This document shows positions 1 to 57,675 of a DNA stretch of 64,000 bases, one piece after another. The DNA is from Amphiscolops sp. MND2022. Lineage: Eukaryota. The position numbers were made by a program, and so were the translations under genes. The number at the start of each line of letters is the position of its first letter. The first letter of the stretch is position 1. The notes under the pieces are model-generated. The model did not search any database and was not told where the DNA came from. It saw nothing but the letters and a program-made list of their open reading frames with translations. The stretch covers positions 35,342,001 to 35,406,000 of the forward strand of contig OZ076409.1 in NCBI GenBank assembly GCA_964187785.1, given 5' to 3'.

Positions 1-634
1 TGACAGGTACTTCGACAACAAAGAGCAAGAACGAGCAAAAACACGGGCGCGCTGCCATGACAGAAGCCAGAGACGGCAAGAACATCCAAAAATAGACTCT
101 TTTTGAGGTGCTAACACCGGTTTTATCGATTTTCAGCATTATGCTACCCTATGTAGCGGAAACCGTAAAAATGAGTCTTTTCGCCTAAAGATCCTTGTTT
201 GGTGCTTGGAGCCCCCGCGCCCCAGCTTGTAGCTGTGTGGTTTGCCATATTCGTGCTTGTTTTCATGTATTTTCAGTGATTTTGGCTGTATTCAGTAGCG
301 CTAGCGCTAGTTTAGATCTTAGTCCCCAATTTTAGATCTTATTCACATGTCACTCTGGAACTGAAAATTTACCTTATTCGTGGCATTGTTTTTATATGCT
401 AGTTAAGCGGTGGTCTTTAGAGAGTCAGAAAGATGCCCGTTATTATTAGCAATCAAAGACTAGGACCGGTTGGACAGTATTCGTCGAAGCACTCGCGGCC
501 CCGGGACGTATTTCACCCCTGGAGGCAAAATGGATCTGTGGCGATGGGCGCCTGTCCCGAGCGATTCACCCATTCCTGCAGGTTCCTCCACCTCTGTTAA
601 CGCGTTAAGCGACCGATAACAGCTTGCCGTTACA
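1..634 (+). repeat. 5' LTR (partial)
   Basis: Colinear with 14239-14872 with roughly ten substitutions seen by eye; ends AGCTTGCCGTTACA. Confidence 0.96.
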
Positions 635-649
635 TGAGACCTCATTTTT

Positions 650-666
650 TGGCGACCACAGAGGGA
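650..666 (+). promoter_or_regulatory. Primer binding site, probably tRNA-Arg
   Basis: TGGCGACCACAGAGGGA is complementary to a ...TCCCTnnGTGGTCGCCA tRNA 3' end like that of animal tRNA-Arg(TCG); lies 15 nt after the LTR end. Confidence 0.75.
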
Positions 667-3600
667 TCGCTTCCGATTACTGCCCTATTATATGGTTTTG
701 AAATTTCCGACCCCCTGGTATGGGACGCCAAGAACGATTGGACTCTGGAAGGAGACGTTTACCCTGAATTTTTCCAAATTTTTTAGATGTTATGACGTTG
801 TATTTTGGTGTTTTTCCAGTCTTTCAGGGGATTTTTCCGAGTACTTTTGGTATGTTTTGATAACAGATACTTGTTGACAGATATCGTCTAAAATTGCAAG
901 GTTCCCATCAGCGGGTATCTTTTTTGCAGGTGAAGAGGACCGTAGCACGTGGCTACGGGTGTTTAACAGGTTTTTTGAGCTATTTTTAGCCATTTTATGC
1001 CATGCAAGAAGGTGACTGGTGGATGGTCAGCCACGAGCCAGCGAGGCGGCAGAGGGGTCAAATCGTGTGTTGCCTACTTCCTACTCCCATTTCTCGTGGA
1101 TACGTACTAGAGGTATGGTTTTTAGTGGACAGCAAGTACAAGAGCAGACGATGCTAATGGTCTAAACCGCGTGTCTCTATCTGGTCCAGATGTGGAGAAA
1201 AAGCGTGGTGAACATGTACCCCCTGTGACCAGAAGTGTAGCTCAAATGGCCCATGGTTGGCCAAAAAGTTTGAAAAGACACCTTTTTCGACAGGGAATTG
1301 TTTGTTCAGCCTTGTTTTCCTTTGTTGCAGCTCAGTGTGTGCTTTTGCACCTGTTTTCAGTGAAAAAAGTGCGATTTTTAGTGCAAAAGTCGCAAAAACG
1401 TCGTTTTTGGCATTTTTGAGTACTTTTCTTGGTACGAGCGCGAGCGCTCGAAGTATTAGCCACAGCAGTTGCAAAAATGAATAGAAAGCAGCCCAAAACC
1501 TTGAGGGTTTTGCTACATATTGTAACGACAACCGGAAAGACCGTTGGAGACCTTTTTGAGACACATTTTGCATGAAAAAACCCGGTTTTTGGCGAAATTG
1601 GCAAAAAACCACTATGAAATGCCACTGGGAGAGTGCTGGATTGTGATGTAAATGCCTCTTCCGTGCTGCTATTAGTTTGGAGCACACTCCACACTACCGA
1701 AAAGAGGATTTAAGAGAGTTTGTAACTTCTTGGTGAGAACAGGTCGAAAAACCTTGATTTTTGGCGAGTTTCAGGAGTGCCAGAGTACATCATTAAAACC
1801 TCTGGGGCACTCAGTGTTTTCGAGACCTGGGAGCCCTCGCGCTCTCATTTTCTGTTTTTGTAGTGAAAATAACGCGTGGTGGTGAAAACCGCGTGTAAAA
1901 ATTCCCATTCAGTGCTGAGAAAAGTGGAAAAACGCACTGAATTTGATCAATTTTCCACAAAACCGGACTGTCTCTGAGCTAGGGTCGGTTCATCGATTCC
2001 TAAACCCTAGCCAAAAAAGTGGTTGCATTTTCGTAATTACCACCAAAATTAACGTTAGTGGCGAAAATTTTGTGAGCGTATCGGTCACCAAAGTCGAGAA
2101 AAGCTCTCTGACGTTTCGACTTCAGAGAAGCGTAAGAGGACCGAAAAAATCCAAAACTGCAGGACTGTCAGTGCCTTATACCTAACGGGCACCACCAATT
2201 GAGGGTTTAGCCCAGTACTACGGATAGTGGGGCAACACGTTGGTCCCATTTTGCCCGCCGTATCAGTTTCTGAGGTGATCCTCTTGGTCAATTTTGAAAA
2301 AAGTTGTCAAAAACAGTGTTTTTTCGTGTGTAACGTCCATATCGAGTCGAAACCTTAAATAAGCACTCGAGCTTCAATTCGACCATATCAGTGGCATTGT
2401 AGGTGCCCACTGGCATAGACTACTAAGTTTGGTGCCGATCTGTGTGATACTTGTTGAGAAAATAGGAAAAACGTGGCACACAAAACATTTGCGCAAAAAG
2501 GCAGTTTTTTCTTAGTTTTTCCAAGTAACCCGGGCACCTTAGCCGACGGGTGGGGCTATATTGCAGCCCATCATCGTAATCTGTGCTAGTTTCTACGTTG
2601 TTGCAGAGATTTTGAGCTTGCTAGCTTTTTCCAGTGGACCGCAATCTTGAAAAAGACGTGAAAAACAGTGTATTTCGGTACAAAGTGGTACCGCACGTCT
2701 GTACCTAGGTGAAACTGTGTAGAAGAGGCGCAGCTCAAAACTGTGTTCACTTTCGTAAACCTACGTGTACCTAAGATCTGCTGGTCAGTTTTGGGCTAGA
2801 TACGGCGCTTCCAGCGCACACACTAGCCTCTTGAGTGTTGTGGTGCGATTTTTGGAAATCCAAAAATTCTTTGAAATTCTTCCTGTGGGTGACTGGAGAC
2901 TTTTTGCCCTAAACCAGGTTAATTTTCTGGCCCAGTGTGCTTGTGGAAAAGCGCTGTGCAAATTTGAACAGCCTATGAGCCTTACAACGTGTTTTGAAAA
3001 ATCTTGGACGTTGAAAAAACATCAATTTTTTCAAGTCCTCACCGAGACGAGCAGAGGTCCAAATCTTCGAGGAGACCCCCTGCAAGCCTACCAGCGTCTG
3101 TTTCACTATTCTAACAGCGTGGTTGGTGCCCACTGGCAGCGCCTGCCAAGTTTGGGGTCAATTGGTACTGTATCTGTTGAGAAATTGACTAAAACAAACT
3201 GCACAAGAAGGTGCCGAAGAAGTCGAATTCTACGAAGTCTTGTGGGACTGCCTGAACACCTTATTCAAAGAGTGGGGACAAATTGCTGCCCACTATCGTA
3301 ACCAGTGCAAGTTTATCGTATTGTTGCCGAAAAAACGAGCGTGAGCGCTCTTTGCAGTTCGCCAGAATCTGGGTTGACACGTGGAGAACAGTACATCTTA
3401 GAACACAGTGATACCGAACGTCTGTACTGTGTTGAAACTTCACCTAGTCATCTCAGCACAAATCAGCTATTATTCCCGTGTACCTCAACTTACGTGGGAT
3501 TGTGTGATTAATTTTGAAGCCGATCCTGCGTTTCTAGCGTTAGCGCTAGCCTCTGGAGTTTTTTTCAAGTGAATCTGAAAAACCCAAAAAATACCTGAAA

Positions 3601-4652
3601 AACCTCTGACATGTGACTGGATCCTAATACCCCGATTCTGGACTCACTTTTTGGGTCAGTGCATCAATCCGGAAGTGCTGTATACCTTCCAGCACGCTAA
3701 AACCCTTGGAACTAATTTCGACTCTTCTTGGACGTGCATGGTCATGGTTTCAGTTTAAGGTTTCACCGAGACGAAAACTGGGGAAGTGGAAAAAAAGCCA
3801 GTTCTACGTGCTGGAAACCTGTTGAAACCCCTAGTTTGAACTCCCAGCAGTTAGTTCATTGCTGTGCGTGTGATATTTGATCAGTATCGAGTGGGCTGCC
3901 TTGCTGGATCATAGCATTTTGTTACTTGAAGTCGTGATATCCTGTGTATCGTAACGAATTAGATCATTTTTTGCAACTGTCGGCGCACCTTATTGGAAAG
4001 TTGGGATAACATTGCCGTGGACTATTCCTATTAGTGTCAGTTGGTGCACCGTTGCTGAAAGAAGTGAGCTCGAGAGCTCAGCACTGTGGACGAGAGTCTT
4101 TGATTGCATGTGAAAAATAGTGTCAATCTAAACACGGTGATACGGAACGTCCGTACCAGATTTAAATCTTGCCCAGTGGTCTGAATTCTCATTGATTGTT
4201 TTTGTATTGTATCTGGCTGTACGTGTGATCGCGTGACCAACTTTGAGCCCAATACCACGTTTCCGGCACTTGTACCAGCCACTTGAGTAATTTTCGAATA
4301 AAGTTGAAAAATCTAAAAATCGTTGAAAAAGGCTCTAGCTTGAAGCTGGAGACAATCATCAGCTACGGTAGGTTATTTTTCTAACTTGTGCGGCTGACGA
4401 ACCGTGCTGTGTCATTTTTTTACCCAGTACGATTGATAAAACTGAATTTGACTTTGTTCAGACACACGTTTTGAACGGAAATCCCGAAAACCTAGCAAAA
4501 AACTATCATTGTAAATCCTCAATACTTCCGCTGTAAAGTAGGCGGACCCAAAAAGCCTTCATTTTCCAACGGAAGGGACCCAGTAGACCTTCCTGGGTGC
4601 AAACGAGGCAAATCCCACAATTCAAAAAAATTGCCGGCAGGGATCATAGATT

Positions 4653-5492
4653 ATGGACTCCTCTAGGACTTCGAAATTTGATCCTGAACAGTGCAAGTCA
4701 GCGGTGTTGAGTGGCTGCGACGCACTCTGGACTACATCTAACGCTGGAATGAATCCTTCGGAAAAATTCCAACGCCTCTGCTTCCTTTTGAAGGGGGAAG
4801 GGGGCACCAGCGCAGCACAACCAATCGATGAACCGGCCTCGATATCTTCGAACAACGCAACCATGGGCATGGCTCACACGTCGCCTGTGGATCGAGGCGG
4901 GTTGTTCGAGGACAATCATGGTACTGAAGACTCAAAAGATGAATTGATATCTCCCGAACAGTTGAAATTCACGGAGGCGATATCCAAAGCTATAGCTAAA
5001 GAGTTGGCTCCCTTGATCTCCAATCGTGATCAAACCGCTGTTCGACCAACCTTATACAGAGGTTCGAAAGACGGGACTGTTGAAGAGTGGTTGCGCCTGA
5101 TGAAACGGTATCTGGAGCGAGTTCATTCGAATGCTTCACCTGTCGGCAAGGCCTGGGCGATAATCGATCACTTAGGTGATGACGCTCGGAGTTTTATAAT
5201 CAACAAACCGGAGTCCGAACGGGATTCTCACGAGAAGGTGACTACCTTGCTCTCCAGCAGATTTGGGACTGGGAGTAGCCGCTGGCCAGTTAGGCAGGCT
5301 TTCAGATTGCGAAGTCAACTTGAAATAGAGGACCTGATGCAATATCTAGATGCATTGGAGGGTCTGAGGAGTCAGGGTTTTCCTGATGAGCCTATCACAA
5401 CCCGACGCTATGAAATCTTGCATCGGTTCATGGATGGGGTCAGCGATCCCGTGTTGCAACGAACGAGAACTGATGGTAGTGTTTGCGACTGA
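4653..5492 (+). CDS. gag: Gag (capsid-like domain), N-terminal part of an originally continuous gag-pol frame
   Basis: 279 aa ORF with retrotransposon capsid-like pattern (YRGSKDGTVEEWL..HLGDDAR..FRLRSQ..E.LMQYLDALEGLR..GFPD) directly upstream of pol. Confidence 0.85.
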   Translation: MDSSRTSKFDPEQCKSAVLSGCDALWTTSNAGMNPSEKFQRLCFLLKGEGGTSAAQPIDEPASISSNNATMGMAHTSPVDRGGLFEDNHGTEDSKDELISPEQLKFTEAISKAIAKELAPLISNRDQTAVRPTLYRGSKDGTVEEWLRLMKRYLERVHSNASPVGKAWAIIDHLGDDARSFIINKPESERDSHEKVTTLLSSRFGTGSSRWPVRQAFRLRSQLEIEDLMQYLDALEGLRSQGFPDEPITTRRYEILHRFMDGVSDPVLQRTRTDGSVCD

Positions 5493-8400
5493 GGCGTATC
5501 TAGCCGACCCACCTAACGTGGAGTCACTTCGGTTCACTGTACAGGAACTCCAAAGGAGTCGTCACCAACAACAGCCTCGTGACCCAGGGTGCACCGAGAC
5601 TGTACCTTATCAGTGCCTACAGAGCGACCAAGTGCCGGGGTCACCAGTGGCTCCGCAGCATGAATCGCTGCCACCCCTTGCACGCCAGTCGGCGCGATTG
5701 CCGATGCCGGCTGCGTCAGTACACACAGCCCCTGAATACAGACAGACCGCAACCTTAGAGCAATCCGCGCGCTGCTTGCAGAGTGCTTGCGCGAGACGCA
5801 AGCTGGTGGTGCATCGCCCGGAGCATATTTTTGACCCAGATAGTGAGCCCCAGCAAGATGCTGCAGCAGCGGTTCCAGCGCCTGCTGTCCCAGTGAAATC
5901 GTGCACAACTGAGGTCTCTGCAGATTGTCCAACATGGTCAATCCAGTCAGAAACTTTCAGCCCTAGGGCTGAAGAAAAGAAAACGGAGGCAACGCAAACC
6001 TTGTCTACCGTCAGAGACAGGGTATTAATGCTACGTCCAGCTGACCAAGCCACCGTAAATGTTCCATTGACTGTCACGTGTGGCACAAAGCAGGTGCAGA
6101 CCGGTTTGGAGTCCACAACGTTTGACCCTAGTGACCGGACTTTATTGTCTGTACACCTAGTGCTGGCCTCGGAGCAACAAATACGCCCAGATTTGACCTT
6201 GGAAAAATTGAAGCTGGAGTTGGCCAGCAACCCGGCTGTCAAGAGGATCTCCTTGCCACTGCCAAAGGAATGGTACACTGAAGGCGAAGCTAGCATATGC
6301 ACGGCATACTCGCCTGTTCCGGTGCACGCTAACATAGATGGCGTGGACATGAAATTCGATGCTAGCGCGGTAGTAGATGTGTTCCCTCAAGGAGTGTGTC
6401 TAGGGCCACATGAATTACGCTGCTATAGCATCAGCAAGCAGGAGCCCACAGGTGAGGCCCGCATAGATGAGCGTGCGTCGCTCGTGGTATCTTTCGCAGT
6501 GCAAAATGCTAACCCTATTCCACTGAGAGGAATGGTCGACACGGGGTCAGGCGTATCAATCATGAGTTTCTCAGCCTTCAACCGTGTAGCCTTGCAGACA
6601 GGTGTAGCGCTACAACCTTGTCGAATCAACTTGTATGCTGCTAATGGGAAGACGATAAAAACGTTTGGAATAGCGGAGCGTTTGCGCTTCCAGCTAGGTG
6701 TGTATGAACTCGAAACAAATTTCGTGGTCGTTGATGACGCACAGGGCTTGGAAGATTTCTTGCTGGGTAGGAATTTTCTGCGAGCATATAACGTGCTGGT
6801 AGATCTGACCTGCATGAAAATTGTGGTTCGAGCGCCGGCTAAGCCTGTGTGGCATCACGCACACGCCCAGACGAGTGACGAAGCTTTATCCAGTACAGTA
6901 GTTTTGGATCAAGACGTAGTGCTCCAGCCATTTGAACGTGCTGTTTTACGAGCTAAGTTGGTCACTTCAAACTTGGAAGCTTTTGCTTTCAGTAATGTTG
7001 TCATTAACTTTGCAACACGGAACGGATTGCTGAAGAACTCTATATTCGTGGAAGACACTATAGCCACTGTTGGAGAGACAGGTTCGTTCTATGTCTCTGT
7101 TGGCAATCTGACAAGCAATGCCCAGAAAGTGAAGTGCGGCACCATGCTTGGTACTGCTGCGCCAGTACGCCTAGTCTACCATGCAGTCACCCAATGTGCG
7201 CTAGCGCACAAAGGCGAAAGTGACGAAAAATCGGACTCCCTAAATGAGTTCGTCAACAGGGTCTATTCTGAAATGGACCTGAACTCGCATTCAAAATGTT
7301 CGTCGTCGTCGGAGTTCGAGTTTCTCTCCTCTACAGACCCATCGGAGGAGGGGTTGTCAGAGCGCGAGATCATAAAGCGCACTGACCCTGATCTCTTGGC
7401 CCCTATTCCTGGACCCGAATCTCAGTTAGAGGACGTACAAAAATTGTGGGGGCAGACTGCCCGCGACTCGCTGAACAACATCCTTACGGAATTTGATGAC
7501 CTATTCATGAAGCACAAAGCAGACATTGGTCGCTGCACAATAGCCAAGCATCCTGTTGAGTTGGAGCCTGGGGCTACACCGCACCGTGAAGGCGCGAGAA
7601 GAATGTCTCCTGACAACGCGGAGCGCGCCAATCAGGAGGTACGCAATCTCCTGGCTTTGGGCATGATCCAACGTTCGCTATCACCTTGGGCGAGTGGGAT
7701 TGTGATGGTCAAAAAGAAAAACGGGGAGTTGCGATTCTGTTGCGACTTTCGCCCCCTCAACGCTGTCACAATAAACGACGCGTATCCCCTCCCACGCATC
7801 GATGAAAACCTTTCACGCTTGGGTAAGGCCAAGATTTACACTAGCATTGATTTGGCCTGGGCTTTCTGGCAGATACCAGTCCGCAAAGCAGATAGGCAGA
7901 AAACGGCCTTTGCCTGCGAGCTGGGTTTGTTTGAATGGCGACGTATGCCTTTTGGGATGTGTAACGCTTCAGCTACTTTCCAGCGAGCCATAGCGCGAGC
8001 GCTACGGAAAATTGTGAATCGGGAAGGAAGCATGGTGATGGCGTACATTGACGACATCGTCATTGCTACCGAGACAGTCGAGGACCACATGGTACGCTTA
8101 CGCGAGGTATTTGAATGTCTGCGCGAAGCTGGCTTCAAAATGAGAGTCGCTAAGTGCGACTTTATGAAGTCGGAAATCAAGTACCTGGGACGTGTGGTCT
8201 CTGCCGAAGGTATCAAACCTGATCCTAAAGCAGTGGCAAAACTACGCGATTGGGAAGTACCGAGGAACAAAACAGAGATGCAAAGCTTTTTGGGCTTCGC
8301 CAACTATTATCGAGAGTTCATTCCTTGGCATGCCAACCTTGTGGCCATCTTGCATGCTATTACCGGTCTGGGCGCGACTTTCGCCTGGGGGGATGAGCAG

Positions 8401-8625
8401 CAACAGGCTTTCAACGCCATTAAATTGGCTTTGATCGAGGCAACTGCCTTGGCGCAACCGGACTCGGAGGGCGAATTTGTGCTGGACACTGATGCCAGTG
8501 CCGTTGCAATATCCGGCATTTTGCATCAGTGGCAGGGTCCTCCGGGCGAAAGGCGCCTGAGACCAATTGTGTATGGTAGCAAGAAGTTGAATGCCACTCA
8601 AGCGAAGTATGGCTCCCAAGCTTGA
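5386..8625 (+). CDS. pol: Pol part 1: Gag C-terminus, aspartic protease, reverse transcriptase, start of RNase H
   Basis: MVDTGSGVS (protease), LLGRNFL, SPWASGIVMVKKK..RFCCDFR.LN, RMPFG, YIDD (RT), LDTDAS (RNase H). Confidence 0.97.
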   Translation: MSLSQPDAMKSCIGSWMGSAIPCCNERELMVVFATEAYLADPPNVESLRFTVQELQRSRHQQQPRDPGCTETVPYQCLQSDQVPGSPVAPQHESLPPLARQSARLPMPAASVHTAPEYRQTATLEQSARCLQSACARRKLVVHRPEHIFDPDSEPQQDAAAAVPAPAVPVKSCTTEVSADCPTWSIQSETFSPRAEEKKTEATQTLSTVRDRVLMLRPADQATVNVPLTVTCGTKQVQTGLESTTFDPSDRTLLSVHLVLASEQQIRPDLTLEKLKLELASNPAVKRISLPLPKEWYTEGEASICTAYSPVPVHANIDGVDMKFDASAVVDVFPQGVCLGPHELRCYSISKQEPTGEARIDERASLVVSFAVQNANPIPLRGMVDTGSGVSIMSFSAFNRVALQTGVALQPCRINLYAANGKTIKTFGIAERLRFQLGVYELETNFVVVDDAQGLEDFLLGRNFLRAYNVLVDLTCMKIVVRAPAKPVWHHAHAQTSDEALSSTVVLDQDVVLQPFERAVLRAKLVTSNLEAFAFSNVVINFATRNGLLKNSIFVEDTIATVGETGSFYVSVGNLTSNAQKVKCGTMLGTAAPVRLVYHAVTQCALAHKGESDEKSDSLNEFVNRVYSEMDLNSHSKCSSSSEFEFLSSTDPSEEGLSEREIIKRTDPDLLAPIPGPESQLEDVQKLWGQTARDSLNNILTEFDDLFMKHKADIGRCTIAKHPVELEPGATPHREGARRMSPDNAERANQEVRNLLALGMIQRSLSPWASGIVMVKKKNGELRFCCDFRPLNAVTINDAYPLPRIDENLSRLGKAKIYTSIDLAWAFWQIPVRKADRQKTAFACELGLFEWRRMPFGMCNASATFQRAIARALRKIVNREGSMVMAYIDDIVIATETVEDHMVRLREVFECLREAGFKMRVAKCDFMKSEIKYLGRVVSAEGIKPDPKAVAKLRDWEVPRNKTEMQSFLGFANYYREFIPWHANLVAILHAITGLGATFAWGDEQQQAFNAIKLALIEATALAQPDSEGEFVLDTDASAVAISGILHQWQGPPGERRLRPIVYGSKKLNATQAKYGSQA

Positions 8626-11503
8626 AATGTACGCAGCTTATTATTTCATCTTGAAGAATCACAGTTATCTCTGCTCCAGAAAGTTCATCCTTCGGGTTGA
8701 CATACAAGCTCTCTCTTGGCTCAAAACGTATTCCACTGATCAGGCCTTGATTGGTTGATGGGTTATAGCACTCGAGAAGTACCATTTCAAAGTGGAGCAT
8801 CGTCCCAGGACACAGCATAGGAATGCCGATGGTCTCAGTAAACGAACCAATGATTATCGGTGGCAAGAGAAGCATCTCGAGAAGCTGCCAGCTGTAACGG
8901 ACAAATGGAATTTCCTCTCACAAGAGGAGTTTGACCAGCTGCCCGTTGCACCTTGGTTCGATTTGCATGGTCGGGTGATACCCAATCACCCCCAATTGCC
9001 CGCTCACTTGCGGAACACTAAACCAGACCCCACAAATGCAGTTTGTCGTGTTGCACGACGGCGTAAGCGCCGTCAGGCCGCTGAGAAAAGGGAGAGGGCG
9101 CTACGCGCTCCTCTACCTGAGGCACTAGTGCCTACATTGCAAACTCACGAAGACTTCTATCCAGATTATCCTGAGGACTGGATTGACGTCACTGAACAGG
9201 TTAGGCAAGATTACTTGCTGCCTACACATGTGGCAGATATCCCCTCACGCATGACATATTCCCTTGACGAAACAGTGGAGCAAGCCATGGCTTCCGCTCC
9301 AACGGTGGTTAGGCAAGCTGCCCTAGCCATCAAAGACATAGACACGGAACTTCATGAACATGCCAACACGGTGCATGGCATCAAGGATCTGCTTTTGGCG
9401 CAGAATCGTGATGTGCATGTGCTAGCCATAAAGAAGTTGGTAGCACAAGAGTCTATTGATCATGACATTTTTCCTGAAGACGTGCGTGCGTTCGCACGTA
9501 ACTATTACAAGCAGAAAAAAGATCTCCTGTTTGTAAAAAAATTGAATTCTTCGTGTTGAGTATCCACCTTAGCAACGTCCACTGCACAAACGTCCGTGCA
9601 TGATTGTAATGTCACAAATGCACCAGCATGAAATTCTGTTTCGTGCTCATGACGCCATGGGCCACCAAGGCATTGCAAAGGTGGTGTCGCGAATCCAAGA
9701 ACGCCATACCTGGCCAGGTATTCGCCGCAGTGTTGGTCAGTACGTGAGTCAGTGCCTCACGTGCCAGCAAGTACGTGACAGGCCGGGTGACGTTCGGTTT
9801 CACTTGAAAAATATCCAAAGTGGGTATTTCAATGAGCTGGTCCAGTATGATCATCTGAAAAAATGCCCCTCCGATAACAATAACACCGGCATATTGGTGA
9901 TAATTGACCATTTCTCAAGTTTGCGGAGGCTGTACCCTGCAGCCATGAAGATTCCGATGCAGTGACCACGTCTATGTTGCTTCTACAGAAAAGGTTTGCC
10001 AGGCACGGCACGCCTACGCGGATGCAATCAGACAATGCCCCCAACTTGACTGCAGAGGTATCCAATGAGTTCATGAGGGCATCTCAGGTCACAAAAGTTA
10101 CCTCTACGGCGGGTCATCCGCGCACCCAAGGCCTGGTCGAACGACAAAATCGGACTTTGCTGACTTTGTTGCGGGTATTCTGCTCGCGTCGCATGAGAGA
10201 TTGGGACCAGCATTTGGATGAAGTCATGGGAGCGTATAACTCAACGCGCCATGCCACGACTGGGTTTTCACCCTACATGCTGACCCGAGGGACCGAAAAG
10301 GCTATCCCTTTCACTTATCTGTATCCGGAGTTCGCAGCCAGATCATTTGAATCGCATGGAGCTCATGTGGAGCATATTCTTGCTCGCCAGCAAGAGATTC
10401 ATGACTTGGTGCGTAGGAACACGCATCAGGCGCAACAACGTCAAAAGCTGAAGTATGATCGAGCTATTCGTGCAAACGCATACAATGTGGGAGACCCCGT
10501 TTGGGTCTTCTGCCGCTATGTGCCTCAAAAGGGATCACCGAAGCTGATGAGAGCTTGGCGTGGTCCGCACAAGGTTGTCCATGTACTACAAGATGGCCGC
10601 GTGTATATCCTAGACTCAGGACAAAAAGTGCACTTTGAGCGGCTGAAACCTCATCATGGTGGCCCGACGGAGTTTGTTCCGCTACCCTCGGGGAGTGGCG
10701 AAGTGGTCGTTGTAATGGATCCTGAGCCTGAGCACTCTGCTGAGGAGATCCCAGATGACTGCTCGCAACCCTCATATCGTGAGGAAGAACCGCTGTCTAA
10801 AGCATCAGATGTATCGCTACCGTCAAGGAGACGCCACTGGATGGACACCAGGTTGCGTACTAGACTGCGAGCTGGAGGCAGTCGTCTCCACTATCAGCAA
10901 TTTGACTATTCCAGTTCCGACCCAGAGCGTTCGCGCTCTGACGACTTGCTGTCAGATGCCCGAGATCGTTCCGAGGCTGAACCTTTGGCGCTATTTGAAG
11001 CTTCAATGCCTCCCGATGAACAACCTCGATCATTGGAACCTGCCAATGACTACGAGTTTCCATTCCTATCTGAACCTGAAGGTATTCCGGAGGTACCTCA
11101 ATCGCAAGATATTCCCGTTGCAACTGGAGAAGCCGACGTATCAATAGCGGGTACATCTGCTCCTCTGTTGACGAATCCTACATTGACGGATGTGCCTATT
11201 AGTATTTCCCAATTGGCGAATGGTACCTCCAACCTCCAAAACACTGAAATCCGTGACACCGAGTTATCCAACACCAACGAGCCAACTGCTCGGAACAATG
11301 TCTCCAGCACGCGTGGTAGGGGCAGATCGCGAGCTGCTCTATCTCGTTGTTCGACACGAGCAACAAACTCCCGGTCGCAGAACGTGAGCGTGCGCGCTCA
11401 AAGGACTCCCAGTCGCAGAGGACATCCTCGAGGACGACCTCCTCGGAGGCCACGAGGACACACTATTTCTTCACGGCAAACAGCTCGTGAAATTGACACA
11501 TAG
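8626..11503 (+). pseudogene. pol: Pol part 2: RNase H end, linker, H2C2 zinc finger and DDE integrase, broken by frameshifts and stops
   Basis: EHRPRTQHRNADGLS (RH end); HDAMGHQG..CLTC zinc finger; IIDHFS, QSDN, GLVERQNRTL (rve core); W.GPHKV..VHFERLKP; split over ORFs 8792, 9600 and 9962. Confidence 0.93.
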
Positions 11504-12997
11504 CCATCAATTACATCGGATTCTGACACTGATGCGCCCACCGCGCAGCTTACATCCGATGTTGACCAAGGCGCTACTCAGGTTAACCCGCACTATGGCT
11601 TACGCCGGAATCGAGTACCTCGATATCGATGTGGAACCTGTGGGTTTCGCGATTGCACTAGTGTCATGGCTCTGAACAAATCGCCCACTACCCCACTTGG
11701 ACCTGTGAAAGCTACGGTGGATCCAAAGCCTCAACCTTTTATCCACAATGGTAAGCTTCTTGTCAGTCGCGTTGTCATCCGAGCAGAAAAGACATACACC
11801 GGTCTAGAAAGAAAATGTATCTTCCCTGTGGATGTCGTGCTGGAAGAAATATCTAAATCCAAGATTGCTGAGGAACCTTGTCCCCGCTTCAAGGAGTGGA
11901 CGAGCGATCTCCTTGGATTGAAATTCACACTTGCCGTCACAGTGCCTCCTGTCACTCCTAACATTGTATTTGGACCTTTCAATTATGAGAGGGAACCCAT
12001 TCAAATGGTTCGCTGTATTACCGCTGACCTCCTATCTGACAAATACGGCATCACCTGTCAGCCTGGTGAAGTGTATCGCCCAGCCCAAAATTGGTGGTTG
12101 CTTTTAACTGCCCCACATGCTCACTCTTTGGTCCAGCCTGACAGCTTGCGGAGCTGTCTAGAGAGTTTGCGGACTGTTGTCACTGAGGAACTCATTTTGT
12201 GCTTCCACATCGTAGATCTTCATCGTGGAAAACTACGGTTCCGATTGTGGCTAGAGCTGATTATCACTTTGTTCGCCCGCTTCCCCCGTATCCGCCTTTT
12301 GGATGATTGGACCCATTCCTTTACCGAGCCTGTAACGATCCACACTGCACTTGGTACCCTGGATTCATGGTCAACAGCAAATGTGGATAATCAGTCTCTG
12401 TCGAGTTCTGTCTGGCAGGATCTATCTGCTATTCGTGGACAGAACCATATAGACCCAGCTGATGAAAAAGGCCCCGGACGTCAGATTGTGTTTCCTGGTG
12501 CCCTACGACCGAATTTGGTCGATTATATTGTTTACGACCAAACTGACTTCTTGCAGGTGCAGGGCCACGTATCAATTTGCTGCCCTGCAGACCTTAACAC
12601 CAATTCTGCTGCCTTGCGCTAGATTCTTCGCGAGTGTGGCAGCGACAAAAAATTCCAACTTCGCCCAACAGTTGGTGAAGTCCTAACTCTCCCATCCTCA
12701 TTGTCTTTAATGGATAGTCAGCTTATTCACCTAATGATAACACGCCCCTCCCAGCGTTCACCACAAATCACCGATGACTTTTTCTTATGCTTGGAGCACT
12801 TGAAAGCTTCATTATTGTCCACCGAAACCCCTGATTTTCACTTCCCCATAGTGGACCCCGAGCGCCCACTTCGCAGCTTGGACAATTTTTATCATAGTGT
12901 CATGGACGTTTTTGCAGGAACTGATATCACTGTACTTCTGCATGATCGCGTCTATGTCTCCATTGCCAGTATTGAACAACTTCCCGGCATCACTTAG
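11504..12997 (+). pseudogene. C-terminal Pol extension: CxxC motif plus two TARG1/Poa1p-like macrodomains, with an in-frame TAG at 12620
   Basis: Same frame as ORF 9962-11503 across TAG 11501; ORFs 11666 and 12701 are in frame across TAG 12620; residue pattern resembles OARD1/TARG1 twice (see findings). Confidence 0.65.
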
Positions 12998-14084: not shown

Positions 14085-14100
14085 AAAGCCCGGGGAGTGA
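14085..14100 (+). promoter_or_regulatory. Polypurine tract
   Basis: AAAGCCCGGGGAGTGA immediately precedes the TGTAAC start of the 3' LTR. Confidence 0.75.
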
Positions 14101-14872
14101 TGTAACGGCAAGCTCTGGTACAGCAATATCAACCGATTTTGCAACTTTGACATGTTCAGAAATTTTGGTAAAAATTCTAATCCGATGTGTGACGTGGCAC
14201 TGAGCATGTGATTGCTTTTTTCGCTGTTTCCACGAAATTGGCAGGTACTTCGACAACAAAGAGCAAGGACGAGCAAAAACACGGGCGCGCCGCCTTGACA
14301 GAAGCCAGAGACGGCAAGAACATCCGAAAATAGACTCTTTTTGAGGTGCTAACACCGGTTTTATCGATTTTCAGCATTATGCTACCCTATGTAGCGGAAA
14401 CCGTAAAAATGAGTCTTTTCGCCTAAAGATCCTTGTTTGGTGCTTGGAGCCCCTGCGCCCCAGCTTGTAGCTGTGTGGTTTGCCATATTCGTGCTTGTTT
14501 TCATGTATTTTCAGTGATTTTGGCTGTATTCAGTAGCGCTAGCGCTAGTTTAGATCTTAGTCCCCAATTTTAGATCTTATTCACATGTCACTCTGGAACT
14601 GAAAATTTACCTTATTCGTGGCATTGTTTTTATATGCTAGTTAAGCGGTGGTCTTTAGAGAGTCAGAAAGATGCCCGTTATTATTAGCAATCAAAGACTA
14701 GGACCGGTTGGACAGTATTCGTCGAAGCACCCGCGGCCCCGGGACGTATTTCACCCCTGGAGGCAAAATGGATCTGTGGCGATGGGCCCCTGTCCCGAGC
14801 GATTCACCCATTCCTGCAGGTTCCTCCACCTCTGTTAACGCGTTAATCGACCGATAACAGCTTGCCGTTACA
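14101..14872 (+). repeat. 3' LTR, 772 bp
   Basis: TGTAACGGCAAGCT...AGCTTGCCGTTACA 14-bp terminal inverted repeat with TG..CA ends. Confidence 0.97.
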
Positions 14873-17429: not shown

Positions 17430-18204
17430 TGTAACGGCACCCTCTGGTACAGCAAAATCAACCGATTTTGGAATTGTGACATGTTCAGAAATTTTGTCAA
17501 AAATTCTAATTCGATCTTTGACGTGGCACTGAGCATGTGATTGCTCTTTTCGCTGTTTCAACGAAATTGACAGGTACTTCGACAACAAGAGCAAAGATCG
17601 AGAAAAAACATAAGGCCATCCGCCCGAACAGACGCCAGAGACTGCAAAAACCACTGAAACTAGACTCTTTCGAAGGTGCTAACCTTGATTTCAGCAGTAT
17701 GCTACCTTAAGTAGCGAAAACCGTAAAAATGAGTCTTTTCGTCTAATTCACAAATCTGTGCCTGTGGTCCCCCAGCTTGCGAGCTGAATGTGGATGTTGC
17801 CAAATCGCTGTTGTGGACGAGATTGCTGTAGATTGCTATACATTGTTGTAAGTTTATGGCTACTTTGACAACTTTAGATCTTATTTCGCAATTTTAGATA
17901 TTATTCCACAAGTCACCTTGAATAACGAAAATTTAACATAATTCTTTTTGGAACGTTTCTAAAGGCTGTCGAAGTAATAATTTCGAAGAGAAAGCGTAAT
18001 TCGCGCTACTGGCAGCAATTAAAGTCTTGATCAGGCCGGCGAGCACTTCACAAGAAGCGGAATCCTCCTCTGACGGGACAGTTTTTACCCGAAGGAGGCA
18101 AAATGAGCTCGTGGTCATGGGCGCCTGTCTCGGGCAAATACCCATACCTTGTGTTCCTCCAACTCTAATGGTTACGGCGACAATGGTGAGAGCTTGTCGT
18201 TACA
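17430..18204 (+). mobile_element. Solo LTR, diverged relative of the 14101-14872 LTR
   Basis: TGTAACGGCA...AGCTTGTCGTTACA, 775 bp, colinear similarity to the 3' LTR; flanked by ATA/ATA. Confidence 0.92.
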
Positions 18205-31439: not shown

Positions 31440-34400
31440 TTCAAAAACTCTACCCGATCATATATCAGTTTTAAAACTGTTGATAGGTTTTTCTTTTAAA
31501 TGCCATGTATATCAAGAAAACTTCTTCATCTGTTTTATTTTCTGGTAATTTTTTATGATACAAAAGTATAAACTTCAAACAACATAGACATGGACAATCG
31601 CCTTGTTGAGTGTGTTTATCACATAGTGAGTTTTCTATTGGATTTATAAACAAGCGCTCATCATCGAAGGTACTACAAGTTACCTTTTTTTGTGTCTGAA
31701 CGGTTAGGTTGTGTGCTTTTGAACGAATTGAATAATTTGTTGACTCGGTTGTTTCAGAATAAAATTGGAGATTATATAATTTTCTAAATTAGGAGCTTTT
31801 TGTATTCTCTTTTGCTTCGAATGAGTTTTGGTGCCGGGGGTTTGCGGGTCCTTGGTCCCGTACAGCAAAGTTGGCTTCGCATATGAAATGCTATATGATT
31901 TATATCTTAATACTACAATTTCAGTCAATTCAATTATGGTCGATGTCTCTAATTTCGTTTTCCCTATTACTTTTTCATTTTTACAATCATATAGCTCATG
32001 AGATTTATCTAATTCGCTGAAGTCAAAGTTCTGAGGTGAAAAATTCCATGTCTTTTATAAGGTCCTCAGTTTTACTACTTAAAACAAATGAGTCTGTATC
32101 CACATAATGAAATTGCACCCTATTACCCCAATAGGCTAAAAATATATCATAAGAGACTTCATACAATATCAATTTGAACAACTCTGTCACACTAAAACCA
32201 AGGTTATGAAAAACGGTTTTGTCTTTATCAAACTTGTACACACTGACCGTGGAGTAGTAATCCGCAAAACCTTTTCCATTGTCTTGCCGAAGAAGGCATT
32301 GTTCATGGTTTTATAAGGTCTTTTTCAAAGTTAGTTTTCGCTACAATGCGTTTTTGATAATTATTTTCAAGGTATTATTTTTCTACACAATGTATTTTGC
32401 TAACCAAAGTGATTGGTTGAATTGTCAAATTGAGTGTACTTTTGTTCCTTTCATTCCCATGTTGATGTAAATCTTGATTATCCTATAATGTGTCATATAT
32501 TTAGTTTTATTGGTTACATCTCACATAAGTTTTGATATTGGTTTGTAATAGGGACGTTTTACACTATTCATATAAGATATAAGTAACTATGGACTCACTT
32601 TTGTTTGAGAAAAGCGCAAAGGAAAGTTTTTTTATTTTTTTAAATTTCAATAAGTGTTGTAAATTGATTAATGTCTAATTTTTCAAAATCACCACTCGGC
32701 AAAGGCTGACTCATTGCCCACCCATATAGATTATTTGCATCATTGTATAAAGGTTTAGTGTTTTCATCAGATTTACCATGCCTATCACGCATCACACTAG
32801 ACACACCACCACGAATATTATTTACTGAAAATATTAATAATTCTTTATCTTTCATATAATCTAACTTTTTATTTGTGAACCTCAAGACAATCACCCATGT
32901 AATACCTGGTGCTGAGTAACTGTACAACGGATTAATGCCACACAATAGAGGAGACTTCTCAACAAAGTTCTAGAACACGTCAGTTAGTTGAGGAACATCC
33001 ATTTTTAAGTAAAACATAGTAAGTTGTTGTGGTGTTGTAATGTTGTATTTTTTAACTATTTCACTTGTACGGGATAAATCACTTCACACGTGTAAGGTTG
33101 TTTTAATGTGGACCAATAGTTTTTTTGGTTAGATTATGGGGATCTTGGAAATTTTCATGACCGAATTTTTCATATTGATAAGCTAGTTTTTCTTGAACAA
33201 ACCATCAGTTGAACCCTCGGAGTCCATACATTTGAGAGTGTCCAGAGATGCTATTGGTTTTTGTAGACTAGAAGGTAAGAATCTGTTTGAATCCAGGAGT
33301 TGTAAGGAGACTATTTGTAGATTAACATAGTTTTCCATTGACTTTGGAAATATTTTTGGTTCATACCCCATTATGAAAGCTTGTGTTAAGAGTTCTTCAA
33401 TTAAAAGATGACAATCATAACCACTGAAAATATGGAAAAAATAGGACCAAAACTTGATGACTTTTGTTTACAATTTAGATTACACCTATTATGGGCTGCT
33501 TCTTTGTACTTACCGGTAAGACGAACGTGATCTCTAACTTTAGCAGTATTCGAATCAAAAGGTTTTTCCCACACAGCAAAGCTGGCTTCGCTTATCCAGC
33601 ATGTTGTAGACACTTCAAATTGTTCTTATTCTTCAGGACTCCTTACAAACCCATTACAGTTTTTGGCGCGTGAAAGTGGTATATTTGTTTTGAAATACTC
33701 AGATGCCATTTTTTCTAAATTAAACATTTCAGTTACAAACCATTTAACACAATCAGTTCCAGAATAAGTGTAGTATGCGGAGCCAGCTTTGCTGCATGCG
33801 GAGCCTGCGGAGCCAGCGAAGCTGTATTGATTTCCAAATGGTGAAAATAAATAATAGCCAACAGCAATTGGGTTTGGTTTGAATAAAAAGTTGGGTTTAT
33901 TAGGCTTATTTAGAGGCTAGTTAATACAGTCGAAATCTACATATACTCTAAAAGGGAGTGGAATTTTCATATTGTTGATTTATACATCTTTCTATATGAT
34001 CAATTGGAACTGGGTGTGCACTCGAGGTTGTTAAACATCTCCTACATACATGGTTAAAATGTGAACTTTTATTAATTAAACAGTGTAACTTTGTAATTTG
34101 AATAAAAAGTTGGTTATATTAGGCTTATTTTGAGGCTAGTTAATACAGCCAAAATCTACATAGACTCTAAAAGGGAGTGGTATTTTCATATCCGGGTGTG
34201 CACTCGAGGCTGTTAAACATCTCCTACATACATGGTTAAAAAGTGAACTTTTATTAATTAAACAGTGTAACTTTGTAATTTTTGGCATTAGTAATTTTCA
34301 TACAATAATCAGTCTCTTTGTGTTTGTTTGATCATAGTTCGTTTTCAGTGGATTGATGCCAAACTGTTCCCATTACGATACACATCCCGGTAAAATGGAC

Positions 34401-37400
34401 TCCAGTCTGGCAGCGTAATCTGTGTAATCCGAAAAATGGTCATTCAGCGTCATTCACCTAAAGGTCATTCACCTATTATGGGCTGCTTCTTTGTACTTAC
34501 CGGTAAGACGAACGTGATCTCTAACTTTAGCAGTATTTGAATCAAAAGGTTCTTCCCACACAGCAAAGCTGGCTTCGCTTATCCAGCATGTTGTAGACAC
34601 TTCAAATTGTTCTTATTCTTCAGGACTCCTTACAAACCCATTACAGTTTTTGGCGCGTGAAAGTGATATATTTGTTTTAAAATAATCAGATGCCATTTTT
34701 TCTAAATTAAACATTTCAGTTACAAACCATTTAACACAATCAGTTCCAGAATAAGTGTAGTATGCGGAGCCAGCTTTGCTGCATGCGGAGCCTGCGGAGC
34801 CAGCGAAGCTGTATTGATTTCCAAATGGTGAAAATAGATAATAGCCAACAGCAATTGGAATTGGTTTGAATAAAAAGTTGGGTTTATTAGGCTTATTTTG
34901 AGGCTAGTTAATACAGTCGAAATCTACATATACTTTAAAAGGGAGTGGTATTTTCATATTGTTGATTTATAGATCTTTCTATATGATCAATTGGAACCGG
35001 GTGTGCACTCGAGGCTGTTAAACATCTCCTACATACATGGTTAAAAAGTGAACTTTTATTAATTAAACAGTGTAACTTTGTAATTTTTGGCATTAGTAAT
35101 TTTCATACAATAATCAGTCTCTTTGTGTTTGTTTGATCATAGTTCGTTTTCAGTGGATTGATGCCAAACTGTTCCCATTACGATACACATCCCGGTAAAA
35201 TGGACTCCAGTCTGGCAGCGTAATCTGTGTAATCCGAAAAATGGTCATTCAGCGTCATTCACCTAAAGGTCATTCACCTATCATGGGCTGCTTCTTTGTA
35301 CTTACCTGTAAGACGAACGTGATCTCTAACTTTAGCAGTATTTGAATCAAAAGGTTCTTCCCACACAGCAAAGCTGGCTTCGCTTATCCAGCATGTTGTA
35401 GACACTTCAAATTGTTCTTATTCTTCAGGACTCCTTACAAACCCAATACAGTTTTTGGCGCGTGAAAGTGATATATTTGTTTTAAAATAATCAGATGCCA
35501 TTTTTTCTAAATTAAACATTTCAGTTACAAACCATTTAACACAATCAGTTCCAGAATAAGTGTAGTATGCGGAGCCAGCTTTGCTGCATGCGGAGCCTGC
35601 GGAGCCAGCGAAGCTGTATTGATTTCCAAATGGTGAAAATAGATAATAGCCAACAGCAATTGGAATTGGTTTGAATAAAAAGTTGGGTTTATTAGGCTTA
35701 TTTTGAGGCTAGTTAATACAGTCGAAATCTACATATACTTTAAAAGGGAGTGGTATTTTCATATTGTTGATTTATAGATCTTTCTATATGATCAATTGGA
35801 ACCGGGTGTGCACTCGAGGCTGTTAAACATCTCCTACATACATGGTTAAAAAGTGAACTTTTATTAATTAAACAGTGTAACTTTGTAATTTTTGGCATTA
35901 GTAATTTTCATACAATAATCAGTCTCTTTGTGTTTGTTTGATCATAGTTCGTTTTCAGTGGATTGATGCCAAACTGTTCCCATTACGATACACATCCCGG
36001 TAAAATGGACTCCAGTCTGGCAGCGTAATCTGTGTAATCCGAAAAATGGTCATTCAGCGTCATTCACCTAAAGGTCATTCACCTATTATGGGCTGCTTCT
36101 TTGTACTTACCGGTAAGACGAACGTGATCTCTAACTTTAGCAGTATTTGAATCAAAAGGTTCTTCCCACACAGCAAAGCTGGCTTCGCTTATCCAGCATG
36201 TTGTAGACACTTCAAATTGTTCTTATTCTTCAGGACTCCTTACAAACCCATTACAGTTTTTGGCGCGTGAAAGTGATATATTTGTTTTAAAATAATCAGA
36301 TGCCATTTTTTCTAAATTAAACATTTCAGTTACAAACCATTTAACACAATCAGTTCCAGAATAAGTGTAGTATGCGGAGCCAGCTTTGCTGCATGCGGAG
36401 CATGCGGAGCCAGCGAAGCTGTATTGATTTCCAAATGGTGAAAATAGATAATAGCCAACAGCAATTGGAATTGGTTTGAATAAAAAGTTGGGTTTATTAG
36501 GCTTATTTTGAGGCTAGTTAATACAGTCGAAATCTACATATACTTTAAAAGGGAGTGGTATTTTCATATTGTTGATTTATAGATCTTTCTATATGATCAA
36601 TTGGAACCGGGTGTGCACTCGAGGCTGTTAAACATCTCCTACATACATGGTTAAATAGTGAACTTTTATTAATTAAACAGTGTAACTTTGTAATTTGAAT
36701 AAAAAGTTGGGTATATTAGGCTTATTTTGAGGCTAGTTAAAACAGCCAAAATCTACATAGACTCTAAAAGGGAGTGGTATTTTCATATTGTTGATTTATA
36801 CATCTTTCTATATGATCAATTGGAACCGGGTGTGCACTCGAGGCTGTTAAACATCTCCTACATACATGGCTGAAATGTGAACTTTTATTAATTAAACAGT
36901 GTAACTTTGTAATTTGAATAAAATGTTGGGTTTATTAGGCTTATTTTGAGGCTAGTTAATACAGTCGAAATCTACATATACTCTAAAAGGGAGTGGTATT
37001 TTCATATTGTTGATTTATACATTTTTCTATATGATCAATTGGAACCGGGTGTGCACTCGAGGCTGTTAAACATCTCCTACATACATGGTTAAAAAGTGAA
37101 CTTTTATTAATTAAACAGTGTAACTTTGTAATTTTTGGCATTAGTAATTTTCATACAATAATCAGTCTCTTTGTGTTTGTTTGATCATAGTTCGTTTTCA
37201 GTGGATTGATGCCAAACTGTTCCCATTACGATACACATCCCGGTAAAATGGACTCCAGTCTGGCAGCGTAATCTGTGTAATCCGAAAAATGGTCATTCAG
37301 CGTCATTCACCTAAAGGTCATTCACCTATTATGGGCTGCTTCTTTGTACTTACCGGTAAGACGAACGTGATCTCTAACTTTAGCAGTATTTGAATCAAAA

Positions 37401-54146: not shown

Positions 54147-55004
54147 ATGAGTGAAAAGAAGAAGGAATTTGCTAAAGAAATATTCTCTCCTGTAATTAAG
54201 GAGTTTCAAAGAATACAAATACAAACTCACTACAAAGATGAATGTTGGAGTATTGATTTAATTGATCGCTCAAGTTTAAGCAAATACAACAAAAACTACA
54301 AGTTCATTTTCACAATAATTGACAACCATACTAAATATGCATGGGCGATCCCCATCAAAGATAAAACCGGAAAAAGTACAACAACTGCATTAAAAAGTCT
54401 TATCGAAAAAACAAAAAGAAAACCGGTTAAAATATGGTCAGATAGAGGTAAAGAATTTTATAATAGAACATTTTTGGATTTTCTAAGAGAACGAAACTTT
54501 CATATTTATTCAACTCATTCAGATTTAAAAGCTGTTTTTGTTGAACGCTTCAATAGAACACTTTTGGATTTAATCAAAGAACCAATTTACATTGAAGGAA
54601 AAGCTTGTTTGTTGAATCATCTTGATGCTGCTGTGGAAAAATATAATAATCGTGTTCATGGAACTATTAAGATGACACCTTTTGAAATGGTAACTAACAA
54701 TCAACTAATACCTAACAAAAATAATTTTGAAAACAAACAACCCAAATTTCATGTGGGAGACTATGTAAGAGTTCCTGATAAACGCAATTTATATAGTAAA
54801 GGTTATACAACAAATTGGAATAGAGAACTTTTTAAAATACATAAAAGTAATTCAACTAACCCAGTTACGTATGGTTTAGTAGATGAAAACAACGAACAAA
54901 TAGAAGGAAAATATTATGAACAAGAACTTTTAAGAAGTATATTCAACTTTAAATCTAACAACAAAACGTTAGAAAGTATGAATATTTTCCATCGTTATGA
55001 GTAA
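54147..55004 (+). CDS. int: Polinton retroviral-like (rve, DDE) integrase
   Basis: WSIDLID, IIDNHTKYAWA, WSDRGKEF, KAVFVERFNRTL, KGYTTNW, GKYYEQEL; intact 285 aa. Confidence 0.96.
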   Translation: MSEKKKEFAKEIFSPVIKEFQRIQIQTHYKDECWSIDLIDRSSLSKYNKNYKFIFTIIDNHTKYAWAIPIKDKTGKSTTTALKSLIEKTKRKPVKIWSDRGKEFYNRTFLDFLRERNFHIYSTHSDLKAVFVERFNRTLLDLIKEPIYIEGKACLLNHLDAAVEKYNNRVHGTIKMTPFEMVTNNQLIPNKNNFENKQPKFHVGDYVRVPDKRNLYSKGYTTNWNRELFKIHKSNSTNPVTYGLVDENNEQIEGKYYEQELLRSIFNFKSNNKTLESMNIFHRYE

Positions 55005-56448: not shown

Positions 56449-57675
56449 ATGGAAATATTTTCATTGAAAAATAAATATGCTATGGATAAACCTATTCATA
56501 AAATTGATTTTATTAAATACTCACCTAGTAGTTTAGCTACAATTAATAATAGTAATTCAAATATTTCCATCATCTTCCCCAGAGAAGATGCATATATTTG
56601 TTTACAAAACTCATACATATCATTAGAATTGGAATTTCTTAAAAACGATGATACAAGATATGCAGATGGTGATCAAATAAGCTTGGTCAATTTTGGACCC
56701 GTTGCTTTGTTTAGTGAAGCTAAGTTAACTACTAGTTCGGGCAAGCATTTAGAAAAAGTTGATAACCTACACCCGATATGTTTAATGCATGAACTTTTAA
56801 CATCTAATCAACAAACAAGTCAATTGATGTACGGATTTGAAGAATCACAAGCAACTAGAAGACAAGAACTAACAACAAACAAAACAGAAAAAGAAACCAT
56901 TTTTGTTAGAATAAAACTAAAAGACTTGTTTGGATTTGCTGATCAAGAAAAAATAACTTATGGATTGGGTTACAGTCTCACATTAAAACGTAATAATAAT
57001 GACGACCCTATCATCAGGGACAATGGTGTTGATGCTGCAAAAATTGATATAAAAGATATAGGTTGGTATATTCCACACTATGTTTCTAGCTTAGAAAACC
57101 AGCAACTCGTGATGGATCAAATATTAGACAAAGATCCAACTGATTTATTTTATACAGAAAGAGTTCTTTTTAGAAACGATGTTAACACCAATAACAATTG
57201 GACATTTGAATTAGGCAATAGTGGAGAATCAACACCAACATGTTATTGTTGGATTTCAAGCAAGAAATAAAATTGATTCACAAACACATGATAATGCAAT
57301 ATTTGATCGACTTCCAGTTAGTAATGCTGTTTGTAAAATAGGATCAGAAAAATATCCCGATGATGGAATAGAATGTGACTACGATCGCGACAAATATGAT
57401 CAAGCATACTGTGAAAGTGAAAACTTTATCACTTAAAAAGTGAAACTAACATACTCAACCCGTTTATTGATTTGCATAAATTCAGGACAAATTATAATTT
57501 TTATGTATTCGATTTATCCAAACAAATAGACCACATCGGGAGTCAACCTGTTAGATTAGAATTTAAATTTAATGCTGCCATTGATGTAGCAGATTATATA
57601 GCTTATGCCCTTGACCTAACACCCAAGCTGATAAGTATTAGTAGTGATGGACAAAGGCATTTTGATTTATTATAA
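56449..57675 (+). pseudogene. Double jelly-roll major capsid protein (frameshifts near 57240 and 57430)
   Basis: ~408 codons over ORFs 56449, 57221, 57472; patterns LFSEAKL, IGWYIPH, VIVGFQ, KYP, YVFDLSKQ..VRLEFKF typical of Polinton MCP. Confidence 0.85.

Follow-up and report, generated by a model that had tools for sequence, protein, structure and literature searches.

Macrodomains have been captured by LTR retroelements before. Some Pol proteins of animal retroelements are annotated with Poa1p-like domains, and macrodomain-carrying epsilon-like endogenous retroviruses of fish were reportedly described by Basta et al. in 2009. The available part of one account presents the macrodomains of these fish elements as additional ORFs (PMC4977317). 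As far as that text goes, the locus described here shares with them the capture of a macrodomain by an LTR retroelement, but the carrier is a Gypsy element and not a retrovirus. For a TARG1-like domain at the C-terminus of a Gypsy integrase we found no report in the literature covered, a coverage outside which most subscription journals as well as Repbase and GyDB fall. The position itself is familiar from chromoviruses such as MAGGY, where, according to the available parts of two sources, a chromodomain at the C-terminal position of integrase serves target tethering (bioRxiv 10.1101/2021.11.30.470311; PMC13524379). Our element likewise carries an extra domain at the Pol C-terminus past integrase; in contrast, its tail comprises ~500 residues and begins ~300 residues from integrase, and Pfam detected a chromodomain neither in the window frame (hits up to E 1) nor in intact relatives, the beta-rich extension at 11735-11947 being without an assigned fold. 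Tandem macrodomains in a viral polyprotein that have lost the glycine motif are found in the SARS-unique domain (SUD; Mac2/Mac3) of coronavirus nsp3. The available parts of PMC2674928 state that the SARS-CoV SUD macrodomains lack the glycines, do not bind ADP-ribose and bind G-quadruplexes, and those of PMC5864081 likewise back this precedent. SUD took up nucleic-acid and protein binding, and its likeness to the Gypsy tail is by analogy only: it belongs to another macrodomain class, matches weakly in structure (Z 6.4-7.7) and has an independent origin.

By structure, the closest described protein is TARG1 (OARD1/C6orf130; 4J5R, 4J5S, 2LGR), the best match of our domain 2 and the top or tied match of domain 1. 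It differs from the domains found here by a sequence identity of only 16-18%, by Lys84 (here mostly Arg), Asp125 (here absent) and both glycine loops (here replaced), and by the tandem arrangement and fusion to a retrotransposon Pol. DarG (5M3I, 5M3E), Poa1p (6LFQ) and the BT1257-type protein (2AFC) represent the same compact ALC1-like fold class, but they score lower against domain 2 (VIA Z of 14.5, 11.4 and 13.0, respectively) and gave no profile hit; the catalytic Lys is moreover not kept in the window subfamily and no toxin partner is present here.

The window, a stretch of 64 kb, opens inside the 5' LTR of a Gypsy-type element, and the matching 3' LTR occupies 14101-14872. Both LTRs and the order protease, reverse transcriptase (RT), RNase H and integrase identify a Ty3/Gypsy element, for which we assigned the following features:

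1-634 (+): 5' LTR, cut by the window start, ending in an inverted terminal repeat
650-667 (+): primer-binding-site-like TGG tract, ~15 nt past the LTR, judged from its context
4650-5471 (+): capsid-like part of Gag, frameshifted here and in one frame with pol in intact relatives (tblastn of intact relatives)
6520-6783 (+): aspartic protease (PF13975, E 1.5e-7)
7708-8190 (+): reverse transcriptase (PF00078, E 7e-36)
8386-8800 (+): RNase H with a frameshift near 8612-8616, end approximate (PF17919, E 8e-17; tblastn)
9621-10660 (+): integrase with zinc finger, core and SH3-like C-terminal part, end approximate (PF17921, E 8e-17)
10661-11425 (+): low-complexity linker, first half acidic, second half basic (net charge in four intact tandem relatives)
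11426-11440 (+): AT-hook-like core, PRGRP (RGRP census in relatives)
11501-11503 (+): in-frame stop of the window copy only, open in relatives and not a family feature
11630-11662 (+): Cys cluster after the basic stretch, degenerate in the window copy, putatively metal-binding (motif census)
11735-11947 (+): beta-rich extension packed with domain 1 in one predicted unit (structure model)
11948-12307 (+): macrodomain 1, predicted shortened TARG1/DarG-class fold (VIA and Foldseek on the model)
12308-12385 (+): strand and helix closing the domain-1 unit, then flexible linker (secondary structure of the model)
12506-12949 (+): macrodomain 2, predicted full-length TARG1-like fold (Foldseek and VIA on the model of relative P0003)
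12620-12622 (+): second in-frame stop of the window copy, inside macrodomain 2 (frame reading)
12950-12997 (+): conserved C-terminal extension and terminal Pol stop (C-termini of 94 relatives map to this bin)
14092-14100 (+): short purine-rich tract before the 3' LTR, putative polypurine tract (sequence context)
14101-14872 (+): 3' LTR, 772 bp, with a 14-bp inverted terminal repeat (LTR comparison)

The forward frame 9908-12997 is interrupted by just two TAG codons, at 11501 and 12620; its closing stop lies at 12995-12997. This agrees with the original prediction, which had followed the integrase frame through both TAGs to 12997; the motifs it quoted for both domains and the Cys motif are present, and its domain limits match the structure-based ones listed above. 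By aligning intact relatives onto the window we additionally observed frameshifts near 5461-5471, 8612-8616, 9513-9556 and 9911-9944, the last of which interrupts the integrase. Because of these frameshifts besides the stops, the window element is a dead, decayed copy and not a read-through gene. Hits to rve were weak in the window integrase and full in intact relatives (Pfam). Despite the four internal frameshifts and two stops, the LTR pair is 98.6% identical (626 of 635 columns, over the available part); this high identity next to a broken interior may reflect trans mobilisation of an already defective template, or assembly errors. The coding region has a GC content of 51% and the window beyond 16 kb one of 32%. 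A related LTR remnant, 81-84% identical to the 3' LTR, lies at 17430-17935, and no tRNA gene was found in the 64-kb window.

Next, we used natural relatives to analyze the fusion of the tail to Pol. A search with the tail gave 146 relatives among 6444 candidates, falling into identity groups of roughly 80-94%, 50-59% and 36-47%, and a search for longer forms, run on 4681 candidates, gave 63 proteins, the majority being Gag-Pol polyproteins with lengths of 2500-3100 residues. The relative P0507 (~94% identical) is a single frame of 2770 aa that runs from Gag through RT and integrase into both domains, and one open frame was found in intact relatives from four tandem subfamilies and from a sister clade with a single domain. 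An RT motif and the macrodomain(s) share one frame in 54 tandem proteins, many of them near-identical copies of one subfamily, and in 6 single-domain proteins (among 515 collected). The placement of the domains past integrase in one Pol protein, as originally predicted, is thus seen in intact copies. The prediction had named fixation of the stop at 11501 in all copies as the sign of a separate ORF. In a BLAST comparison (324 matches, 321 proteins) this site was spanned open by 72 matches with no protein ending there, and the site of the stop at 12620 by 168 matches, with two distant proteins ending nearby. Gene-called proteins are open by construction and broken copies are under-counted; what the counts demonstrate is that neither stop is fixed, and the number of intact copies does not follow from them. 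A separate downstream ORF, or the neutral relic of a captured gene, is hardly credible on these data: the stop before the domains in the window copy and the fast divergence of domain 2 would fit it, but the motif columns are invariant with few indels across 14 lineages, intact relatives have the one open frame described above, and P0507 largely refutes it. Programmed read-through of the two TAGs was considered and rejected, as relatives are open at both sites and the window copy also has the four frameshifts.

Several other parts of the polyprotein were recorded alongside. The 4-kb leader between the 5' LTR and gag (635-4649) matches none of the N-termini of 9 intact relatives, and ~240 extra N-terminal Gag residues found in some members of the same subfamily are absent from the window copy. 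PNMA hits in the Gag of relatives were weak (Pfam); in the 3106-aa relative P0396 the Gag region is duplicated, with two PNMA-like and two zinc-knuckle hits. The interval between protease and RT contains a beta-rich stretch (~6850-7200) with weak CBM-like hits, and the same interval of a sister protein gave weak herpes dUTPase-like hits; the stretch is possibly a degenerate dUTPase fold. RNase H and integrase are separated by an unannotated spacer of ~250 residues (8800-9556), which shows 43-65% identity among tandem subfamilies and is longer in the sister clade. In the sister-clade polyprotein P0444 the integrase is truncated and a GDSL/SGNH-like domain (E 8.8e-7) comes after it; this may be a nested or chimeric call. 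We found no relatives of the tail in viral contigs. Metagenome contigs contained no relative by profile; a single-query search gave one chimeric-looking contig of 1 kb, in which a fragment of a distant domain-2 relative (L001:793-1056) is joined to bacterial-looking Lon/Clp (by eye), and this contig is probably an assembly chimera.

To describe the folds we modelled domain 2 on the natural relative P0003, which is 93% identical. The model has a mean pLDDT of 72 with two lobes of high confidence, and domain 2 corresponds in it to residues 281-428, i.e. 12506-12949 in the window. This model matched TARG1 with a Foldseek E-value of 9.8e-11 and a TM-score of 0.82, and with a VIA Z of 16.6 (rmsd 2.9, 137 aligned residues). 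For domain 1 the stop-free window stretch 11723-12391 was modelled directly (pLDDT 90.8, pTM 0.85). Residues 76-195 of this model matched TARG1 (4j5r) with a VIA Z of 13.3 (rmsd 2.3, 111 aligned) and a Foldseek E-value of 2.4e-5; another VIA run gave a tie of TARG1, DarG and 2AFC (Z 11.5, 11.4 and 11.3). The fold matches of the domain-1 unit leave the beta-rich extension 11735-11947 uncovered. Domain 1, shorter by ~25 residues, could be aligned along no more than 111-119 residues. An hhalign comparison of the two domains showed them to be homologous (probability 91.9%, E 6.9e-7). In a PDB search with a profile of natural copies TARG1 was the only significant hit (E 0.011), and after adding the sister-clade domains it was the top hit with E 1.5e-7 over 138 profile positions, an E-value that places the match to TARG1 beyond chance. 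A PDB search with the single sequence of domain 2 gave 0 hits, and Pfam gave no macrodomain hit in the window frame, in the tails of 56 relatives or in intact polyproteins. In the ESM Atlas, domain 2 returned unnamed clusters first and Macro/ThsA_Macro clusters at 0.87-0.88, which we take as leads only; for the domain-1 unit nothing usable was returned. Taken together, both domains are predicted to adopt macrodomain folds of the TARG1/DarG/Poa1p (ALC1-like) class, and the original prediction of tandem TARG1/Poa1p(DarG)-like macrodomains is borne out at the level of these models and the profile.

For the ligand pocket we transferred TARG1 numbering by profile alignment and PMC6397177 to 14 hand-picked lineage representatives, one stray domain-1 row being dropped. 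In domain 2 and the single domains the adenine-contacting Asp20 is kept in 14 of 14 lineages (166 of 172 copies), and the position of Tyr150 is His in 13 of 13; Asp20 is not evident in domain 1. The phosphate-binding positions are changed throughout. Gly41 is never Gly and Ser35 never Ser; Gly43 of loop 1 is Ala in 12 and Arg in 2 representatives and Gly in none. The GxG phosphate loop is replaced in all 14 by an Asp-x-x-Arg loop, with Asp at Gly121 (14/14), Glu (11), Asn (2) or Gly (1) at Gly123 and Arg at Leu124 (14/14), and this loop is also kept in domain 1. Of the catalytic residues, Asp125 is absent in all 14, and Lys84 is Arg in 12 lineages, including the window subfamily, and Lys in 2, hence basic in every one; these two lineages retain Thr-Lys, Thr83 of TARG1 being kept. 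Domain 1 has Ala or Ser at Lys84 in 226 of 233 copies and Tyr at Gly123 in 211 of 233. The motif columns are invariant and the domain is nearly indel-free across the 14 lineages. Thus, of the features that define a TARG1-type ADP-ribosylhydrolase, Asp20 is present, and Lys84, the GxG loop, Asp125 and Gly43 are not. The published TARG1 pattern (PMC6397177) matched none of 517 collected proteins. This census agrees with the earlier statement that neither the TARG1 catalytic Lys nor the glycine-rich GCGLD motif is conserved.

With the phosphate-binding glycines and Asp125 replaced and Arg at Lys84 in most lineages, these domains are unlikely to hydrolyse or bind ADP-ribose in the canonical way. 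The available part of PMC5928194 reports that G43E and G123E in TARG1 abolish ADP-ribose binding and catalysis and leave RNA binding. An active ADP-ribosylhydrolase with changed chemistry is very improbable, as the loss of the glycine loops should block substrate binding and neither Asp125 nor the published pattern was found, although two lineages do retain Thr-Lys and SCO6735, a protein of the same class that has Gln where the catalytic Lys would be, is active (PMC9967889, available part). This activity and the invariant residues ringing the old cleft call for caution against over-reading the loss of the site.

The original prediction had also suggested ADP-ribose readers or decoys. This part is weakened by the census (non-Gly at Gly43 in 14/14 and at Gly123 in 13/14 lineages, with domain 1 more eroded) and survives as a remodelled form that we regard as rather unlikely: an adenine nucleotide (for instance an ADP-ribose end, PAR, or ADP-ribosylated DNA/RNA) would still be a ligand of domain 2 and of the sister clade's single domain, with Arg side chains taking over from the backbone amides, and this binding would direct integration towards such marks or titrate a PARP-based defence. 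Asp20, hydrophobic residues at 21/22, His at Tyr150, a basic residue at Lys84 and Arg at Leu124 surround the old cleft and are invariant across lineages whose RTs are only ~60% identical. SIRT6-dependent ADP-ribosylation silences L1 in mammals according to the available part of PMC4695847, and the fish endogenous retroviruses mentioned above carry macrodomain genes (PMC4977317, available part). However, both phosphate loops are without glycines, with an acidic residue at Gly121 in 14/14 and mostly at Gly123 (11/14), where G123E abolishes binding in TARG1 (PMC5928194, available part), and domain 1 spans only 111-119 aligned residues with Ala/Ser at Lys84 and Tyr at Gly123. In an unlikely, more specific form, ADP-ribose-guided integration, the domesticated TARG1 would read ADP-ribosylated DNA or chromatin, as marks of damage or defence, and so choose the insertion site; Asp20, the basic residue 84, Asp-x-x-Arg and the C-terminal His would form a new nucleotide-mark pocket working with the AT-hook.

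In order to place the tandem arrangement we searched with the RT and found the sister clade (~57-62% RT identity), whose Pol ends in one domain (e.g. P0457, P0476). This domain scores 75-88 bits against domain 2 and 13-16 bits against domain 1. We built an RT tree with FastTree (45 rows, midpoint root; P0394 was left out because its coverage was short). In this tree the tandem subfamilies form one group with a support of 0.997, and the tandem and single-domain clades together are separated (1.0) from named Gypsy proteins of frogs, fish and pseudoscorpions. The domain is absent from all 22 such proteins taken from the RT search (best i-E 0.96). As the sister clade ends in one domain, the tandem likely arose by duplication after one capture, an order of events that we infer. 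Both domains diverge faster than RT and integrase: between subfamilies identity is 83-95% for RT, 70-90% for the integrase core, 43-68% for domain 1, 36-49% for domain 2 and 37-47% for the linker. The distant members P0204, P0218, P0331 and P0168, which lie on short contigs, suggest more than one host.

The linker between integrase and tail (270-360 residues) has a net charge of -15 to -22 followed by +8 to +18 in four intact tandem relatives. Of the 126 tandem relatives with enough upstream sequence, 123 carry RGRP no more than 130 aa before the Cys motif, and this core with basic flanks corresponds to an AT-hook; the Pfam AT_hook profile responded only weakly (E 0.2 in 3 of 56 relatives). 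AT-hooks bind the minor groove of AT-rich DNA. The Cys cluster reads CxxCGxxxCxC in relatives (census of 162 proteins). The single-domain sister clade has an acidic linker without AT-hook and without Cys cluster, so the domain must at first have been used independently of both. In the tandem lineages domain 2 has a net charge of -4 to -9, and that of domain 1 is close to neutral. The original prediction had contained neither the frameshifts nor the conserved AT-hook core nor the single-domain sister clade.

From the observed single frame, domain order, residue replacements, motif conservation and single-domain sister clade we propose that the tail may be a non-enzymatic tether holding integrase on host DNA or chromatin, a reading to which we give about as much credence as doubt and whose functional steps are all conjectural. 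An ancestor would have captured a TARG1-class domain whose phosphate loop had already changed to Asp-x-x-Arg; the change would predate the split of the tandem lineage, since single and tandem lineages share the loop. The tandem lineage would then have duplicated the domain and gained the AT-hook and the Cys cluster. After protease processing the tail would remain attached to integrase, the AT-hook would grip AT-rich DNA, and new surfaces of the pseudo-macrodomains might bind nucleic acid or a host chromatin protein, as the tandem macrodomains of SARS-CoV nsp3 do, so that the tail would bias or assist integration like the chromodomain of chromoviruses. In favour of the tether, the AT-hook core is kept (123/126) inside a linker of only 37-47% identity, and by analogy the position after integrase is the site of tethering chromodomains. 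Against it, the residues Asp20, His at Tyr150, the basic Lys84 site and Arg at Leu124 are invariant around the old cleft and would suit a structural role and a remodelled ligand pocket equally well; the acidic domain 2 and near-neutral domain 1 do not favour direct nucleic-acid binding; the sister clade is without the AT-hook; and domain 2 diverges nearly as much as the linker, its conservation being far below that of RT, a pattern that relaxed or conflict-driven evolution would give likewise.

The long low-complexity linker would also suit an accessory protein released by the protease, which would cut the linker and let the tail act away from integrase, where it would bind the element's RNA or a host factor of silencing or translation, or have a role inside the particle. 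The fast surface divergence agrees with this, and precedents come from TARG1, which binds RNA outside its pocket (PMC5928194, available part), and from SUD, which binds Paip1 according to the available part of its literature. We consider release quite unlikely, as we found no cleavage site, the presence of an AT-hook suggests a role on DNA and Pol products are made one to one with integrase.

Irrespective of the choice between the tether and these readings, the tail adds a new module class to the short list at the targeting position of LTR-retrotransposon integrases. It represents a macrodomain that was captured, had its phosphate loop rewired, persisted in lineages of deep divergence and great abundance and was then duplicated, and the single-domain and tandem clades with their Lys/Arg variants form a natural series for macrodomain use in a transposon. 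Pfam misses every copy tested, and therefore similar tails may hide in other genomes. If the pocket did read ADP-ribose, ADP-ribosylation would be tied directly to transposon target choice or defence.

Downstream of the element, the AT-rich region 22000-61000 contains Polinton/adintovirus-like remnants. We observed a broken protein-primed-polymerase-like frame with an endonuclease VII hit at 58546-60975 (-), an rve integrase at 54147-55004 and a double-jelly-roll capsid-like frame at 56449-57270; ATPase-like and protease-like frames in the same region were assigned by eye. Duplicated segments and tandem arrays of 805 and 219 bp occupy 33400-38600.
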